From Escherichia phage ukendt: a stretch of DNA of 64,000 nt. Within the stretch, counting starts at the first letter, position 1; each line of letters starts with the position of its first letter. The stretch lies in the sequence record NC_052661.1; one strand, given 5' to 3'. The translations under genes were made by a program, and so were the position numbers. Shown piece after piece: positions 286 to 8,725 of this stretch. The notes beneath the pieces were generated by a model. It was not told the DNA's origin. It saw only the letters and a program-made list of their open reading frames with translations, and did no database searches.

Positions 286-690
286 TTATTGAAGTTTAAG
301 TGAACCACGAAGACGTTTCTCTTGCTGATCACGGATATATTGTGGAACCTCGTGAATTGAATCATTACCGTGCCTATTTTCAACAACTAAAGAGATAACT
401 TGATAACCAAACTCTTCAGCAAGAGCTAGATAAGGTTTAAGTTCTTTCTCTGTGGTTGAAGTATTAGAAACAATAATCTTGTTAAGATTAGATGCCATAG
501 CATCACGAACAATACCCTGACACCATGCGTGTGCTTTACCTACATTTTCTGGCTTCCAATCGTAAACACCACTCTCTGTGTAATGATATTGATCTGCCTC
601 ACAGATAGGCCAATAACCTTCAGAAATAATTTCTGCTACTGTAGATTTACCAGCACCTGAAACGCCACGTAAAATGATAAGTTGTTTCAT
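286..690 (-). CDS. P-loop kinase (polynucleotide/nucleoside kinase-like)
   Basis: Walker A GVSGAGKST near N-terminus; 134 aa; last gene of a kinase-ligase-phosphoesterase operon. Confidence 0.6.
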   Translation of the reverse strand: MKQLIILRGVSGAGKSTVAEIISEGYWPICEADQYHYTESGVYDWKPENVGKAHAWCQGIVRDAMASNLNKIIVSNTSTTEKELKPYLALAEEFGYQVISLVVENRHGNDSIHEVPQYIRDQQEKRLRGSLKLQ

Positions 691-1623
691 TTATCCTCCA
701 AAAAAGTTTTCGATTTTTTCACGTCGCTCTTGCTGATTTAAAGCAGCCCATTGAATCTTCGTAAAATTATTTCGAATCCATTCTAACAAAGCGTAATATT
801 CTTCGTCAACCATTTGTTTGGCATTTTTTGGATTATCCCAAATCAGATCCCACTTTTTATCTCCACCGCGCATAAGAAACTTCTTAGTAAGATAGTGTGG
901 TGATTTAATTTTTAAAAGTAAGTTGAACGGATAGTTTGTTTCACGAACTACAAACCCTTCGTGTTTACAATGTTTAGACATTTCAACAACATCTGAAAAC
1001 TTAACCATTGGATGAACTTCAGGACGCTTAAATTTGGTGACAGAAGCAATTCCATCAAGAGCACCTTCAGGTAACATAAAACTTGTCCCATCAGGATTTT
1101 GAATTCTGGCACCAATTAAGTATGCACCTGGTTCTTCTTCGACAATATGCGGATCAGAAGGATCACAGATTTCAAAAAGGAAAGTTGCTTTTGCGCTCTC
1201 TGTCCATTTGATGAAATGTTCTATGTCATCACACTCTGAAACAATATGATTCTTTGCAATACTTGCAAAATCTGATTCAAGGCTTCCTGTTGTCGATACA
1301 ATAAGTTGACCTTTATATACACCTACAGAGGCCATAAAACCATTTACTTTACGAACCACATCTACAAGTTCATCCGCTGGTAGATCTGTGCCATTCTCAA
1401 AACGATTAAAAATCTTAGTGAAAGGCCAAATAACAACATTGTCATCAGCATCAACAACGATTCCGCGACATTCTAGAAGACGAGAATCAATGCTCCATAA
1501 GTTATCCCAGAAAACTTTGTTCTTATACTTAAGAACAGATAGACCAGAATACTCTCCTTCTTTATATGTTTTCTTATGAACTAAACCTTTTTCAACCAAA
1601 TCGTCGCAATTAAATTTAGTCAC
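691..1623 (-). CDS. ATP-dependent RNA ligase-like nucleotidyltransferase
   Basis: Covalent nucleotidyltransferase motifs in canonical order and spacing: RKVNGF (motif I lysine), HEGFVVRE (motif IV), LLKIKS (motif V); stop/start abut flanking genes. Confidence 0.55.
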   Translation of the reverse strand: MTKFNCDDLVEKGLVHKKTYKEGEYSGLSVLKYKNKVFWDNLWSIDSRLLECRGIVVDADDNVVIWPFTKIFNRFENGTDLPADELVDVVRKVNGFMASVGVYKGQLIVSTTGSLESDFASIAKNHIVSECDDIEHFIKWTESAKATFLFEICDPSDPHIVEEEPGAYLIGARIQNPDGTSFMLPEGALDGIASVTKFKRPEVHPMVKFSDVVEMSKHCKHEGFVVRETNYPFNLLLKIKSPHYLTKKFLMRGGDKKWDLIWDNPKNAKQMVDEEYYALLEWIRNNFTKIQWAALNQQERREKIENFFGG

Positions 1624-1624
1624 A

Positions 1625-2176
1625 TTACTCTCCTTTGATTATTTTGTGATGGTCTACAGTCACGATATCTCGTTTACTCATCATAGAAATTATCTCATCA
1701 AAATGCAAGATTTTTCCGTGTGCATCCCAACCCACATCTAACATTTTACCATAAGCTTCATCAGGGAAAGATCCGTGGGAATGCCCATGTAGCATGATTG
1801 ATCCACGACCTTGTTTATTCCAGGAGGCAATAGGGTAATGACTTAAGACGAAGAACAGCTTCTGGTATTTCACTTCGTCATAATACACCACTTCGCCATA
1901 CTCTGCAAGCACTTCTCGGTGTTTGCTGTAGTCATGGTTCCCAACACAGTAGGTGATATCTCCTTGGAGACGGGAAGCAATTTTACGGGTATCTTCTTCA
2001 GTTCCGAAACAGAAGTCGCCCAAATGCCACATCTTAACACCAGGAGTAGTAGCACATTTGTTCCATGCTTCGATCAAGGCTTCTGTCATGTGGTCCATAT
2101 CTTCCCACGGACGATATTCAGGAGCAAACTCTCGAATACGTTTATGCATAAAATGCAAATCGCTTGTAATAAACAT
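1625..2176 (-). CDS. calcineurin-like metallophosphoesterase
   Basis: DLHF, HLGDFCFG, VGNHDY and LHGHSHG motifs in the order typical of the metallophosphoesterase fold; 183 aa. Confidence 0.7.
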   Translation of the reverse strand: MFITSDLHFMHKRIREFAPEYRPWEDMDHMTEALIEAWNKCATTPGVKMWHLGDFCFGTEEDTRKIASRLQGDITYCVGNHDYSKHREVLAEYGEVVYYDEVKYQKLFFVLSHYPIASWNKQGRGSIMLHGHSHGSFPDEAYGKMLDVGWDAHGKILHFDEIISMMSKRDIVTVDHHKIIKGE

Positions 2177-2532
2177 TAGTATAATCCCTCGCTAAATAAT
2201 TCATGATCGTGACCATTACGCTCATGGTCGATCTGGTCAGCATTTTCCGCGATGATGTAAGCATCCGCACGACTCCACCAATTGTAATACTGATCGATAA
2301 AGCCTTGATTATCTGGTGTGCACAAAGTTTTGTTGATTACACCTGCTTCTTTCAACACGTTTAACTGTGCATATAGTACAGGATTTGCATGTCGAACACA
2401 AGGAATAATTAACTCTTCACCATTATTCAAAATATACTTATTTGCAGCACAGACGATAACACGTTGCGCATAATGACCCTCACCCATCCAGGTAAGAGGT
2501 TGGTAACAAATATTGTTTTCAATACCACTCAT
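2176..2532 (-). CDS. hypothetical early protein
   Basis: 118-aa ORF, start overlaps stop of downstream gene; no recognisable motif. Confidence 0.4.
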   Translation of the reverse strand: MSGIENNICYQPLTWMGEGHYAQRVIVCAANKYILNNGEELIIPCVRHANPVLYAQLNVLKEAGVINKTLCTPDNQGFIDQYYNWWSRADAYIIAENADQIDHERNGHDHELFSEGLY

Positions 2533-2691
2533 TGTTTCCTAATCCTCCTCTCTTAAGTTATCCTCGAAAAAACTAGTGTCTGGAAGTAAAAGATCATTAC
2601 TTGTGTCGGGCCAATCCTCTTCTTCTCGGTAGATAAAGTAACCTTCGTCCTCTTCTTGTTCCGACCAAACCGAATGATGCATGTTCTCTCC

Positions 2692-3048
2692 TTAATAGTG
2701 CACACGAATCATTTTAATACCATAACGCAGCATGGATTCTTTTGCAAGCATGAATTTATCCCCAGCGGCGGGATTAGAAGTATGCACGAAAATGGTAGGT
2801 GAACCAAAGCAAGGTTTACCAAACGCCAAAAGTTCTTCCAGGCGCAGGAAAACATCATACCCATCTTGGTCAGAATCTTCACCCAAATCGTTGTCAAAAT
2901 GCCACTCGTCTACAAAACGATAACCCTTCTGCACCTCGTTCATGTAGCGAGAGGCAAGAAGTTCCTGTGATGTTTTAAACCAGATTGCATCTGGACAACC
3001 ATAATCTTTTGGATCACGTAAATCATCAAGCCAAATAATAGTACCCAT
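2692..3048 (-). CDS. hypothetical early protein
   Basis: 118-aa ORF in the co-directional early block; function not recognisable. Confidence 0.4.
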   Translation of the reverse strand: MGTIIWLDDLRDPKDYGCPDAIWFKTSQELLASRYMNEVQKGYRFVDEWHFDNDLGEDSDQDGYDVFLRLEELLAFGKPCFGSPTIFVHTSNPAAGDKFMLAKESMLRYGIKMIRVHY

Positions 3049-3058
3049 ATAACCTCCT

Positions 3059-3529
3059 CTAAGCTGGCATGATTAAAAAAGAACTCTCCACTTCAAAATG
3101 CCAATCATCTACAAGCCCTGATTCCCAATCCTTCTCTTCATGGAAAGAGCAAATCCAACGGTACATACCTGGCGGTGTATTCTCAACATCTTCTGGCAAC
3201 CCATAATCCAAAGCTGTCTTACCGTTCTCGGTAAAACCAGGATGGAGATTAGGAGCTTTCAGTACAGAAACCATACCTCCAACATCTACAGCCACGATCC
3301 ACTCTGTCATGTATGGGCTGTCATATTGAGGCTCATCAGAACCTACCTCAACAGCCTCTGTGCGTAAGATGATAATAGCCTGCTCTGTGATTGGGGCTTT
3401 GACAATATACCCGTGATCCTCAAAAAGATCGATAACCTCGAACTCATCGCCGTTTTCGATACCATAGCTCTTATTCAAAGAGATAAACTTCGGGTTATCA
3501 TCGTAAGCTTTAGTTACTTTAATTTTCAT
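3059..3529 (-). CDS. hypothetical early protein
   Basis: 156-aa ORF, acidic; tightly packed with neighbours. Confidence 0.4.
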   Translation of the reverse strand: MKIKVTKAYDDNPKFISLNKSYGIENGDEFEVIDLFEDHGYIVKAPITEQAIIILRTEAVEVGSDEPQYDSPYMTEWIVAVDVGGMVSVLKAPNLHPGFTENGKTALDYGLPEDVENTPPGMYRWICSFHEEKDWESGLVDDWHFEVESSFLIMPA

Positions 3530-6804: not shown

Positions 6805-6879
6805 GGCCCTGTAGCTCAATGGGAGAGCTGTCGGCTCATAACCGATAGGTAGCTGGATCGAAACCAGCCAGGGCCACCA
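6805..6879 (+). tRNA. tRNA-Met (anticodon CAT; elongator vs initiator vs Ile-lysidine not resolved)
   Basis: Hand-folded cloverleaf: acceptor GGCCCTG/CAGGGCC, D-stem GCTC/GAGC, anticodon loop CTCATAA, T-arm GCTGG-ATCGAAA-CCAGC, encoded CCA. Confidence 0.75.
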
Positions 6880-6881
6880 AC

Positions 6882-6956
6882 GTCTTTATGGTGTAATGGA
6901 TAGCACAGGAGTCTTCTAAACTCTTAGTCAAGGTTCGATTCCTTGTAAAGACACCA
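6882..6956 (+). tRNA. tRNA-Arg (anticodon TCT)
   Basis: Acceptor GTCTTTA/TAAAGAC, anticodon loop CTTCTAA, T-arm CAAGG-TTCGATT-CCTTG, encoded CCA. Confidence 0.75.
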
Positions 6957-7028
6957 GAACATTTTAACATGAATTAGCTCAAGTGATTTGAACCCACTAC
7001 TGATCATGGTGGCAGAGAATGAGGTAAG

Positions 7029-7100
7029 TATGTCAGACATTATAAACAAAGGCCACGGTTATATTAGAAGACATAAATGCTCGAAGAGCACCGTTCGCTG
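7029..7100 (+). CDS. possible 23-codon micro-ORF between tRNA blocks
   Basis: ATG 7029 with GAGG 5 nt upstream; MSDIINKGHGYIRRHKCSKSTVR; may equally be untranslated spacer or RNA. Confidence 0.15.
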
Positions 7101-7152
7101 AGAACGGGGGTTGGTGGAGTCACCATTCATGGTAAAATGTTTTAAAAAACTA

Positions 7153-7182
7153 TTGACAACTAACACTATTTTATGTTAGATT
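7153..7182 (+). promoter_or_regulatory. sigma70-like promoter (TTGACA, 18 nt, TG-extended TAGATT)
   Basis: Exact -35 at 7153..7158; predicted start site a few nt before tRNA-Ser at 7191. Confidence 0.5.
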
Positions 7183-7190
7183 ATAAGCAT

Positions 7191-7281
7191 GGAAGGGCAA
7201 ATCGACGTGGCGACGAAAACGGTCTTGAAAACCGCCGAGCTTGAAAGAGCCTTGGGAGTTCGACTCTCCCTCCTTCCGCCA
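7191..7281 (+). tRNA. tRNA-Ser (anticodon TGA), type II
   Basis: Acceptor GGAAGGG/TCCTTCC, anticodon arm ACGGT-CTTGAAA-ACCGC, long variable arm, T-arm GGGAG-TTCGACT-CTCCC, G73, CCA. Confidence 0.7.
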
Positions 7282-7285
7282 GATT

Positions 7286-7371
7286 GGTAGATTGGTGAAA
7301 TGGTAGCCACGACAGTTTGCTAAACTGTAGTCGGAAACGGCGTGTAGGTTCGAGTCCTACATCTACCGCCA
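7286..7371 (+). tRNA. tRNA-Ser (anticodon GCT), type II
   Basis: Acceptor GGTAGAT/ATCTACC, anticodon arm ACAGT-TTGCTAA-ACTGT, long variable arm, T-arm GTAGG-TTCGAGT-CCTAC, G73, CCA. Confidence 0.75.
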
Positions 7372-7501
7372 AGTTCTTTTTAATGTAGCTTACTTTAGCA
7401 GAGTAAATCTTCGGCAAGTGGCGGTAACCACTTTACCGATACCTCATAGTTAGTGGTGTGAACACTGGCTATTTTAAAAAGAATTTAAATATTAGTATTT
7501 A

Positions 7502-7589
7502 GGTGAGTTAATTCCGTAGGGGTAGCGGGGCAGACTGTAAATCTGTTATCATTGCGATTCGGGTGGTTCGACTCCATCACTCACCACCA
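7502..7589 (+). tRNA. tRNA-Tyr (anticodon GTA), type II, with atypical 5' region
   Basis: Acceptor GGTGAGT/ACTCACC perfect, anticodon arm GCAGA-CTGTAAA-TCTGT, A73, CCA; junction between acceptor and D-arm is longer than canonical. Confidence 0.5.
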
Positions 7590-7595
7590 AATTAA

Positions 7596-7681
7596 GATGA
7601 GTTGGCTGAATGGTTTAAGCGGCGGACTGTTAATCCGTGTTCGAAAGAACAATATAGGTTCGAATCCTATACTCATCGCCA
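7596..7681 (+). tRNA. type II (long variable arm) tRNA with anticodon GTT; isotype ambiguous (Ser-like body, Asn anticodon)
   Basis: Acceptor GATGAGT/ACTCATC, D-stem GCT/AGC, anticodon arm GCGGA-CTGTTAA-TCCGT, variable-arm hairpin GTTC-GAAA-GAAC, T-arm ATAGG-TTCGAAT-CCTAT, G73, CCA. Confidence 0.55.
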
Positions 7682-7688
7682 GAATTAT

Positions 7689-7765
7689 GGACTTGTAGAG
7701 TTAAGGTAAACCCCCAGTCGCCAATAGGCTTCTGGAATTGCAGGTATCGAATCCTGCCGAGTCCC
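7689..7765 (+). pseudogene. tRNA-like remnant (acceptor and T-arm-like pairing, no canonical anticodon arm)
   Basis: GGACTTG...CGAGTCC acceptor-like pairing, T-like GCAGG-TATCGAAT-CCTGC with 8-nt loop, no encoded CCA, no 5-bp/7-nt anticodon arm found. Confidence 0.25.
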
Positions 7766-7771
7766 AGCATT

Positions 7772-7846
7772 GCTCCTATAGTATAATGGCTATTACAACG
7801 GTTTTGTAATCCGTGGATCTCTGTTCGATTCAGTGTGGGAGCACCA
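7772..7846 (+). tRNA. tRNA-Thr (anticodon TGT)
   Basis: Acceptor GCTCCTA/TGGGAGC with one G-U pair, anticodon loop TTTGTAA, T-loop TTCGATT, encoded CCA. Confidence 0.65.
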
Positions 7847-8118
7847 ACACAACATTAAGAGCACTGTGATTGATCGTCGTATCCTGTGCACAAGGTCTGC
7901 TCGAAAGACAGTGTTCTTAGTATTGTGTTGATCACAAAAAGAGTCACCCGAAACTTGACCGGAGTAGGGTTGGATGGGGCAAAATGAGAAGCGGCTCTCC
8001 CATCGACAGCAACGAAGAATAATATTTGACTTTGGTTTTGTATTATTTAAGTTAGCTTACCGAACGTAGGGCTAGTCACCCAACGGGATACTCGTCACTG
8101 TCCCAATCAATAAAAGTC

Positions 8119-8148
8119 TTGACAACAAATAGTAAAATGTAGTATAGT
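8119..8148 (+). promoter_or_regulatory. sigma70-like promoter (TTGACA, 18 nt, TG-extended TATAGT)
   Basis: Exact -35 at 8119..8124 and TATAGT at 8143..8148; predicted start just upstream of tRNA-Gly. Confidence 0.55.
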
Positions 8149-8159
8149 AAAGATATAGG

Positions 8160-8233
8160 GCGTTCTTGGTGTAGCGGTAGCATTCCGTCCTTCCAAGTCG
8201 GCGGCACGAGTTCGATCCTCGTAGAACGCTCCA
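8160..8233 (+). tRNA. tRNA-Gly (anticodon TCC)
   Basis: Acceptor GCGTTCT/AGAACGC, anticodon loop CTTCCAA, T-arm ACGAG-TTCGATC-CTCGT, encoded CCA. Confidence 0.7.
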
Positions 8234-8330
8234 AATTATTTAATAAAGGGTTGCCAGAAAACTTTCTCTTTTACTCATGGTTTTCTCCTTCTCTCACACT
8301 TCTTCTGGTTGCCCTTCATTAAATGATTTT

Positions 8331-8406
8331 TGGTTTGTAGTGTAGTCCGGTAGCACACGACACTTTGACTGTCGTAGGTTTGGTTCAAATCCAGACAGAC
8401 CAGCCA
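8331..8406 (+). tRNA. tRNA-Gln (anticodon TTG)
   Basis: U1-A72 pair and G73 as in enterobacterial tRNA-Gln; anticodon arm CGACA-CTTTGAC-TGTCG; T-loop TTCAAAT; CCA. Confidence 0.7.
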
Positions 8407-8411
8407 TATAA

Positions 8412-8488
8412 CGGAATTTAGCTCAGTTTGGTAGAGTGTACGCTTTGGGAGCGTATTGTCGCAGGTTCGAATCCTGCAATTCCGACCA
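8412..8488 (+). tRNA. tRNA-Pro (anticodon TGG)
   Basis: Acceptor CGGAATT/AATTCCG, anticodon arm TACGC-TTTGGGA-GCGTA, T-arm GCAGG-TTCGAAT-CCTGC, CCA. Confidence 0.8.
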
Positions 8489-8494
8489 ATTAAA

Positions 8495-8568
8495 TGTTTC
8501 GTAGTTCAATGGTAGAACCCACGACTGATAATCGTGAGACACAAGTTCGATTCTTGTCGAAACAACCA
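8495..8568 (+). tRNA. tRNA-Ile (anticodon GAT)
   Basis: Acceptor TGTTTCG/CGAAACA, D-arm GTTC-AATGGTA-GAAC, anticodon arm CACGA-CTGATAA-TCGTG, T-arm ACAAG-TTCGATT-CTTGT, CCA. Confidence 0.8.
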
Positions 8569-8570
8569 GT

Positions 8571-8643
8571 TTCCCGTTAGACTTACAGGATAAGAGTTCC
8601 ACAGCTTATTGTGATGCTGGTTCGAATCCAGCACGGGATACAT
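8571..8643 (+). pseudogene. tRNA-like remnant (good T-arm, degenerate anticodon arm, no CCA)
   Basis: T-arm GCTGG-TTCGAAT-CCAGC and 6/7 acceptor pairing (TTCCCGT/ACGGGAT); no acceptable anticodon stem-loop. Confidence 0.25.
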
Positions 8644-8646
8644 AAT

Positions 8647-8725
8647 AGCGGGATAGAGGAGTCTGGTCGTCCTCGCCAGTTTCATATGCTGGAGATCATT
8701 GGTTCAAATCCGATTCCCGCCTCCA
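8647..8725 (+). tRNA. second CAT-anticodon tRNA (Met/initiator/Ile-lysidine), with a 1-72 mismatch
   Basis: Anticodon arm CCAGT-TTCATAT-GCTGG, T-loop TTCAAAT, acceptor AGCGGGA/TCCCGCC with an A1-C72 mismatch, CCA. Confidence 0.6.

Follow-up and report, generated by a model that had tools for sequence, protein, structure and literature searches.

A probable heal-and-seal RNA repair operon in the genome of a Phapecoctavirus

Gene content and protein families of the cassette

We analysed a stretch of 64,000 nt from Escherichia phage ukendt (NC_052661.1), which is referred to here at its full length as the window and derives from a Phapecoctavirus (phAPEC8-like myovirus, Stephanstirmvirinae). Near its left end lies a cassette of minus-strand genes for a polynucleotide kinase-like protein, a T4 Rnl1-type RNA ligase and a metallophosphoesterase, accompanied by a gene for a cREC protein, and we consider it probable that this cassette is a co-transcribed phage module for the healing and sealing of RNA breaks. 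Over its first 4 kb, the window shares 98.9% identity with Escherichia phage Mt1B1_P17; the cassette region is conserved in 120 phage records. The genes in question are the following (aa, amino acids):

286-690, minus strand: stand-alone P-loop polynucleotide kinase-like protein, 134 aa, a predicted 5′-OH end-healing enzyme
691-1623, minus strand: T4 Rnl1-type ATP-dependent RNA ligase, 310 aa, GTG start, the predicted sealing enzyme
1625-2176, minus strand: binuclear metallophosphoesterase of the aq_1665/AQ1575 (COG4186) clade, 183 aa, predicted to heal 2′,3′-cyclic-phosphate or 3′-phosphate ends
2692-3048, minus strand: cREC (cyclic-phosphate-processing receiver-like) protein with a match to Pfam cREC_REC, a predicted 2′,3′-cyclic phosphate opener

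The first-pass annotation of this DNA had described a cassette of three abutting minus-strand genes at 286-2176. Open reading frames (ORFs) are indeed present at these positions; the three-gene description was incomplete, since the cREC gene in the same operon had been overlooked. Neighbouring genes of the operon are 0-9 nt apart or overlap, and a GGAG-type ribosome-binding site precedes each of them. The junctions read TAATG between the ORF at 2176-2532 and the phosphoesterase gene, TAATGTG between the phosphoesterase and ligase genes, and TAAATG between the ligase and kinase genes. The phosphoesterase, ligase and kinase genes form a tightly packed, translationally coupled operon. A scan for promoters and terminators gave no signal exceeding shuffled controls, and no terminator-like site was found inside the operon on the minus strand.

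All motifs quoted in the first-pass annotation were recovered from the translations: GVSGAGKST in the kinase, KVNG, EGFVVR and LLKIKS in the ligase, and SDLHF, GD, GNHD and GHSHG in the phosphoesterase. Given the Pfam and PHROG matches and the conservation of the region among phages, such a combination of features greatly exceeds what chance would produce. The ligase matches Pfam family PF09511 (RNA_lig_T4_1) with an E-value of 3.8e-15 and a score of 56.8 bits at a gathering cutoff of 28.3, which bears out its earlier reading as a nucleotidyltransferase. The match spans the whole model (1-227 of 227) and covers ligase residues 51-244; the E-value against phrog_562, the T4 gp63 family, is 2.3e-70. 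KVNG is located at residues 92-95, EGFVVR at 222-227 and LLKIKS at 236-241. A PDB search with the single sequence returned nothing useful, and relatives emerged with a family profile of five divergent orthologues, for which T4 Rnl1 (2c5u/9do4) was the sole PDB relative (5e-14). K92, E151, E222, G223, K238 and K240 are invariant across the five divergent ligase lineages (motifs I, III, IV and V), and K92/E151/E222-G223/K238/K240 align with T4 Rnl1 K99/E159/E227-G228/K240/K242. In the T4 numbering, these are the adenylylation lysine (K99) and the residues of motif III (E159), motif IV (E227-G228) and motif V (K240/K242). The ligase is a member of the Rnl1-type family, within a distant subfamily, and its activity is predicted.

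The kinase is the weakest of the assignments (Pfam AAA_33, E = 2.7e-10), and it was backed by two added tests, a profile search against the PDB and a fold search. The kinase also matches phrog_2071 (2e-56) and phrog_505, which is described as polynucleotide kinase (8e-8). Its P-loop GVSGAGKST occupies residues 9-17, and the P-loop G9-T17 including Lys15, the catalytic D33 and the lid residue R106 are invariant in 32 sequences. As for the ligase, a single-sequence PDB search gave nothing useful and relatives emerged with a family profile, in this case built from 21 sequences. The best full-length PDB matches of this profile, all at modest E-values, were Pnkp1 (4xrp, 1e-5), T4 Pnk (7e-5) and CthPnk (3e-4). 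In the profile alignment D33 corresponds to T4 D35, NTST to T4 SDTN, and the lid ENRHG..VP with R106 to T4 KRG..VP.

The AlphaFold (AF2) model of the kinase has a mean predicted local distance difference test (pLDDT) value of 92.7. CthPnk and T4 Pnk take ranks 1-20 among its Foldseek neighbours (template modelling (TM) scores 0.72-0.79), with the exception of rank 11 (9drz), a fungal Pnk-type kinase, and rank 17 (PSTK), a tRNA kinase. Further neighbours are PSTK, Pnkp1 and mammalian PNKP, while small-molecule kinases such as gluconokinase, adenylate kinase and PFK-2 are for the most part found further down. The protein consists of the kinase domain only, without the C-terminal haloacid dehalogenase (HAD)/DxDxT 3′-phosphatase domain. 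The first-pass annotation had named a nucleotide kinase as the alternative identity of this ORF; the top matches of both profile and fold are polynucleotide kinases. As judged from the profile and the model, the nearest relatives of the kinase are RNA-repair polynucleotide kinases and not small-molecule kinases, and a corresponding activity is predicted.

The phosphoesterase matches phrog_547 (phosphoesterase) with an E-value of 8.8e-56. Its metal ligands and motifs D6, H8, G53-D54, G79-N80-H81, H113, G131-H132 and H134 are invariant. When its family profile was compared with the PDB, the only real structural relative was 1xm7 (2.7e-19), the Aquifex aeolicus protein aq_1665 (COG4186), with which the phage protein has its motif set in common.

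For the cREC protein, which is encoded upstream of the phosphoesterase beyond two small ORFs, the match to Pfam PF20274 (cREC_REC) reaches 50.5 bits at a cutoff of 27 (E = 3.4e-13). It is 54% identical to the cREC of Vequintavirus FV3, whose gene directly follows the FV3 ligase gene, and the acidic pocket is kept between the two proteins (D8, D9, D52, D54, T90, S91 and K98). The cREC family was defined by the Aravind group as a receiver-like domain that never occurs together with histidine kinases; it was linked to RNA ligases and to enzymes of nicotinamide adenine dinucleotide (NAD) and ADP-ribose metabolism, and was proposed, purely as a prediction, to open 2′,3′-cyclic phosphates (PMC7824862; PMC9503650). 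The cREC protein is predicted to be a member of the same repair pathway as the kinase, the ligase and the phosphoesterase. In the public record of phage anhysbys, a near-identical relative, the cREC gene carries the label 'putative RNA ligase and tail attachment protein', which we count as an annotation error.

Linkage across phages and further features of the locus

In order to get an overview of the gene neighbourhoods, we sampled 80 diverse ligase-encoding viral contigs from IMG/VR, with ligases of 37-85% identity, and ran the family profiles against all of their six-frame ORFs. Full flanks, defined as at least 5 kb on each side of the ligase gene, were available for 52 loci. Of these, 47 contain a kinase gene and 46 a phosphoesterase gene, and 41 contain both. 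In 67 of 68 cases the partner genes are encoded on the same strand as the ligase. The distance from the kinase gene to the ligase gene is at most 100 bp in 43 of 68 cases, and that from the phosphoesterase gene at most 2 kb in 66 of 68. In a control, the family profiles gave no extra match in about 137 kb of phage DNA distant from a ligase gene.

Kinase and ligase are moreover fused into one polypeptide in 10 of the 80 loci (L044, L046-L050, L052, L054, L056 and L057). The fusion proteins comprise about 430 aa, with an N-terminal Pnk-like kinase and a C-terminal Rnl1-type ligase. The strong gene linkage together with these fusions supports the view that the proteins act in a shared pathway. 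The triad of ligase, kinase and phosphoesterase also occurs in the annotated genomes of Vequintavirus FV3, Pakpunavirus PAK_P4, the T5-like Thalassavirus AG74 and Ralstonia phage RSP15, and the ligase is found in 726 phage records. cREC, Sir2 and MazG travel together with it only in a subset related to Vequintavirus and Stephanstirmvirinae (7-10 of the 52 loci).

In PAK_P4 (L005 5346-8857) and in Vibrio phage AG74 (L007 7420-8903) the ligase and kinase genes stand immediately next to Prs-like, NadV-like and Macro genes. This gene set, consisting of a ribose-phosphate-pyrophosphokinase-like protein, a nicotinamide phosphoribosyltransferase-like protein and a Macro-domain phosphatase, looks like a phage NAD+ reconstitution pathway, and the arrangement hints at a recurrent island for RNA repair and NAD+ counter-defence. 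A different neighbour is seen in phage anhysbys, in which an ATP-dependent DNA ligase (L001 4416-5531) is encoded in the same direction, some 0.75 kb past the point that corresponds to the left edge of the window. Genes for the sealing of RNA and of DNA are thus often close together in these phages, with an ATP-dependent DNA ligase no more than 8 kb from the Rnl1-type ligase in 25 of the 52 loci.

The remaining features of the locus are three further operon ORFs and a group of tRNA genes:

2176-2532, minus strand: ORF of the T4_Y16D family (PF26092), 118 aa, with a 1-base overlap with the phosphoesterase start
2539-2682, minus strand: highly acidic small ORF, 47 aa, in the ORF list and in annotated relatives, without Pfam match
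3059-3529, minus strand: further operon ORF, phrog_4953, 156 aa, without Pfam match
6805-8725, plus strand: divergently transcribed tRNA array with 10 ARAGORN calls and one tRNA-Tyr-like gene at 7502-7586 found by Rfam only, which provides context and possible substrates

The ORF at 2176-2532, whose translation is coupled to that of the phosphoesterase, was considered as a core component and rejected: it is rare (2 of the 80 ligase loci), belongs to the T4_Y16D early-gene family, has neighbours elsewhere that are not related to RNA repair, and gives uninformative fold matches, its structure model being confident but unlike any solved fold. We take it for a passenger that is probably specific to the lineage. 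The acidic ORF was present in 1 of the 80 loci. Downstream of the kinase, an ORF cut by the edge of the window (up to position 276) encodes a coiled-coil protein labelled 'hol-like chemotaxis' in public records; Pfam gives weak coiled-coil matches only, and we count this label as a further annotation error.

The tRNA array begins 4.6 kb from the phosphoesterase start, in line with the distance of about 5 kb given in the first-pass annotation. At 7596-7681 (plus strand) ARAGORN calls a tRNA-Asn(GTT) of 86 nt with a long variable arm (class II), G73 and encoded CCA. Bacterial class II tRNAs are normally specific for Leu, Ser or Tyr, and the class II architecture makes the aminoacylation identity of this tRNA ambiguous, Asn or Ser. 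An eleventh tRNA at 7502-7589 (plus strand) scores 39 bits with the Rfam tRNA model (cutoff 29) and was missed by ARAGORN as well as by the public annotations, which list 10 tRNAs. It is of class II and has an irregular D-arm, the anticodon loop CUGUAAA (GUA, Tyr), A73 and encoded CCA. In the acceptor stem it is nearly identical to the adjacent class II 'Asn' tRNA, and the sequences suggest that the two genes are a diverged duplicate pair.

Proposed repair pathway and alternative explanations

In the proposed pathway, RNA would be cut by a metal-independent ribonuclease that leaves 2′,3′-cyclic phosphate and 5′-OH ends; the likeliest substrates would be tRNAs whose anticodon loop has been nicked by abortive-infection nucleases of the host. 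The Pnk-like kinase would phosphorylate the 5′-OH. At the other end of the break, the metallophosphoesterase and probably also cREC would generate a 3′-OH by opening and removing the cyclic or terminal phosphate. The Rnl1-type ligase would then adenylylate itself on Lys92, pass the adenosine monophosphate (AMP) to the 5′-phosphate and seal the break.

Not all steps of this scheme are equally close to the data. The first-pass annotation had read the genes as a complete end-healing and sealing set, of which the identities of the ligase and the kinase are directly supported by family membership and intact catalytic residues. The substrates of the phosphoesterase and of cREC are what we infer from the company that they keep: the sole relative of the phosphoesterase is functionally uninformative, and its role in RNA 3′-end healing is therefore suggested by context. 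The same annotation took the vicinity of the tRNA array as a sign of defence against anticodon nucleases. tRNA as the target and such a counter-defence role may apply; tRNA genes lie no more than 8 kb from the ligase in only 29 of the 52 related loci, and about 44% are without.

On a broader scale it is quite possible, if short of probable, that the aq_1665/COG4186-type phosphoesterases and cREC represent two new classes of RNA 3′-end-healing enzyme (cyclic phosphodiesterase and/or 2′/3′-phosphomonoesterase). Together with a minimal kinase of 134 aa and a short Rnl1-type ligase they would constitute a modular pathway across at least five unrelated phage groups, which may defeat tRNA- or RNA-cleaving abortive-infection systems.

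Several observations weigh against the repair of RNA as the function of the cassette. With regard to the ligase, the NCBIfam equivalog for T4 RnlA (TIGR02308) gives 24.1 bits at a cutoff of 242, over residues 43-166 only. The part after motif V measures about 66 aa, against about 120 aa for T4, and T4 residue 284 is the last one covered by the PDB alignment; this C-terminal region is half of the T4 Rnl1 domain, so that tRNA specificity is not to be assumed. The kinase has His36 (His in at least 90% of the family) at the position of T4 Arg38, a residue in contact with the substrate at the phosphate 3′ of the terminal nucleoside. The phosphoesterase scores 24.3 bits with Pfam Metallophos_2, marginally below the cutoff of 27; its relative aq_1665 is a structural-genomics protein without assigned function; and no CthPnkp or lambda-Pase chain was among its PDB matches at E ≤ 1. 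Judged by these matches, it would resemble the CthPnkp phosphatase domain at most in action, not in clade membership. Within their flanks the kinase-ligase fusion loci carry no phosphoesterase of the aq_1665 type, and 3′-end healing in these phages would be absent or done by other means. Our literature search returned computational treatments and genome announcements only, with no biochemical or genetic study of any cassette member. Finally, NAD/ADP-ribose genes near the cassette in several lineages and the frequent proximity of a DNA ligase are points in favour of other functions. The adjacency of ligase and kinase, their fusions and the relatives of the kinase make these alternatives less likely.

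One alternative is a small-molecule module, in which phosphoesterase, cREC and kinase would process cyclic-nucleotide immune signals, ADP-ribose-1″-2″-cyclic phosphate or other NAD-derived metabolites, with the ligase as a mere neighbour. The Prs-like, NadV-like and Macro genes that abut the ligase-kinase pair in Pakpunavirus and Thalassavirus would fit such a function, as would the Sir2 and MazG genes that abut it in Vequintavirus. Iyer et al. name the kinase 'nucleotide kinase' and place cREC in a network of NAD and ADP-ribose (ADPr) metabolism (PMC9503650). The kinase profile also weakly matches nicotinamide riboside kinase (E about 1e-3), in the P-loop region only, and the phosphoesterase profile very weakly matches the cyclic AMP (cAMP) phosphodiesterases Rv0805 and Icc (E 0.1-0.5). 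Over its full length, however, the kinase matches polynucleotide kinases both in sequence and in fold, small-molecule kinases being matched in the P-loop only or ranked lower, and its fusions with the ligase point to a polynucleotide substrate. In this phage lineage, furthermore, NAD-salvage genes do not flank the cassette, and the Sir2 orthologue of anhysbys (6e-81 to FV3 Sir2) is located about 28 kb from it. We regard a small-molecule function as unlikely.

A quite unlikely explanation is DNA-end repair, that is, the kinase and the phosphoesterase would clean 5′-OH/3′-phosphate DNA ends for the nearby ATP-dependent DNA ligase during replication, recombination or repair of damage by host nucleases. 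T4 Pnkp and mammalian PNKP are able to clean DNA ends, and the latter is among the fold neighbours of the kinase. Besides the position of the DNA ligase gene in relatives, some 0.75 kb downstream of the kinase gene and in the same orientation, genes for RdgC and an exonuclease follow it. A weak match (E = 0.004) of the phosphoesterase to PdeM, a phosphoesterase associated with ligases in the DNA-damage response, would also be in agreement with a function on DNA; at 16.5 bits, however, it stays far under the cutoff of 150. The DNA ligase is missing from about half of the loci, whereas the tightest partner of the kinase, by adjacency and fusion, is the Rnl1-type RNA ligase. In addition, cREC is predicted to act on 2′,3′-cyclic phosphates, which are found solely on RNA.

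Repair of RNA could also be a housekeeping task, in which the module would mature or maintain phage tRNAs or transcripts, for instance after cuts by a phage endonuclease, independently of host immunity. The tRNA array with its unusual members lies 4-5 kb away, a majority of the related loci have tRNA genes in the vicinity, and a host nuclease that the module would counteract has not been identified. Against such a role stands the large share of related loci without nearby tRNA genes, and we know of no phage precedent for ligase-dependent tRNA maturation. The phage precedent for this enzyme set is the repair of host-inflicted tRNA damage: in T4 it repairs the tRNA damage inflicted by PrrC (reviewed in PMC7824862). 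A housekeeping role is thus judged very unlikely.

That the ligase is mainly a catalyst of tail-fibre attachment, like the second activity of T4 gp63, is highly improbable: the label 'RNA ligase and tail fiber protein attachment catalyst', spread via phrog_562 and many records, is inherited from the remotely related T4 gp63 and was rejected as annotation carry-over, the gene lies in an early/metabolic operon with end-healing enzymes and not among tail genes, and every ligase catalytic residue is conserved.

Heal-and-seal repair of RNA would place the cassette in a wider context. Defences that cleave tRNA or other RNA are a major arm of bacterial immunity and include PrrC, RloC, Cas13a, HEPN toxins and other tRNases. 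To our knowledge, T4 Pnkp/Rnl1 is the only experimentally established phage repair answer to them. The triad is present in most of the sampled ligase loci, including those of phages of E. coli, Klebsiella, Pseudomonas and Acinetobacter that are candidates for therapeutic use. If the proposed function is true, it would help to explain phage host range on strains with RNA-targeting defences. It would also provide activities for two orphan enzyme families, namely the first biochemical activity for cREC and a function for the widespread orphan phosphoesterase family.

Comparison with prior descriptions and known repair systems

The gene set has been annotated and described computationally before, and the novelty ascribed to it in the first-pass annotation was overstated. 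In the GenBank record of the near-identical phage Schickermooser, the kinase appears as 'putative polynucleotide kinase', the ligase as 'putative RNA ligase' and the phosphoesterase as 'putative phosphoesterase'. For 'Escherichia phage V5 and Proteus phage Mydo', Iyer, Burroughs, Anantharaman and Aravind (2022) described a neighbourhood in which a sirtuin gene is accompanied by those for a T4-like tRNA ligase, cREC, a nucleotide kinase and MazG, and occasionally by one for a calcineurin-like phosphoesterase; they read it, as a prediction, as NAD-dependent RNA repair (PMC9503650, section 3.7.3). The assignment is correct and solid and its conceptual surprise is modest; with the idea already present in annotations and in a published prediction, what value remains is experimental and not conceptual.

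The rV5-type neighbourhood comprises the same protein families as the cassette, and the orthologues in Vequintavirus FV3 are 43-54% identical to those of the cassette. Ligase, cREC, kinase and phosphoesterase are all encoded within 286-3048, and relatives have a MazG-like pyrophosphohydrolase gene some 2-2.7 kb past the left edge of the window. No sirtuin, MazG, 2H or Macro gene was found when these were sought within the 64-kb window. The cassette thus differs from the rV5 type by having no neighbouring sirtuin. The layout is also different: phosphoesterase, ligase and kinase genes form an uninterrupted block with a common orientation, whereas FV3 has its genes for phosphoesterase and kinase divergent from that for the ligase.

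Fungal and plant Trl1 likewise combines an Rnl1-family ligase, a P-loop polynucleotide kinase and a cyclic phosphodiesterase (CPDase), and Pnk-like kinases of Mucorales (9d8a and 9drz) are among the PDB matches of the cassette kinase profile (PMC10946426). In Trl1, a single polypeptide, the CPDase is of the 2H type and leaves a 2′-phosphate that needs Tpt1. The cassette enzymes, in contrast, are separate proteins, and the 3′-end enzymes come from other superfamilies.

In the bacterial Pnkp/Hen1 systems (CthPnkp; Capnocytophaga Pnkp1/Rnl/Hen1, 4xrp), a Pnk-type kinase is likewise found with a binuclear metallophosphoesterase and a ligase, and the binuclear metallophosphoesterase domain of C. 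thermocellum Pnkp has 2′,3′-cyclic phosphodiesterase activity (PMC2190708). The first-pass annotation had contrasted the cassette with both T4 and bacterial Pnkp, as using a metallophosphoesterase instead of a HAD phosphatase; this holds for the comparison with T4, but bacterial Pnkp is already based on a metallophosphoesterase (PMC2190708). The likeness extends to the kinase, for which Pnkp1 is the best sequence match in the PDB and CthPnk the best fold match, and to the ligase, which is a separate polypeptide in Pnkp1/Rnl/Hen1 as in the cassette. On the other hand, the cassette has no Hen1 methyltransferase, its phosphoesterase is of the aq_1665/AQ1575 clade and not lambda-phosphatase-like, and its ligase is of the Rnl1 type and not of the Pnkp-associated type. 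Compared to bacterial Pnkp, the activities are distributed over separate proteins, with kinase-ligase fusions in some relatives.

The logic of the cassette is the same as that of T4 Pnkp and Rnl1, which consist of a 5′-kinase, a 3′-end phosphatase and an Rnl1-family ligase and in which T4 Pnkp provides the repair precedent (PMC3592404). T4 Rnl1 belongs to the same Pfam family as the cassette ligase, with identical catalytic motif residues, and T4 Pnk has the same fold, catalytic Asp and lid Arg as the cassette kinase. The cassette ligase is remote from T4 Rnl1, under the equivalog cutoff and with a shorter C-terminal region. T4 Pnkp carries a fused HAD (DxDxT) phosphatase, whereas the cassette kinase stands alone and 3′-end healing is assigned to a separate metallophosphoesterase and cREC. 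The cassette genes, in contrast to those of T4, are contiguous in one operon. If it functions as proposed, the cassette represents a different build of the T4 answer, with separate genes, a phosphoesterase of another clade and cREC as an addition.

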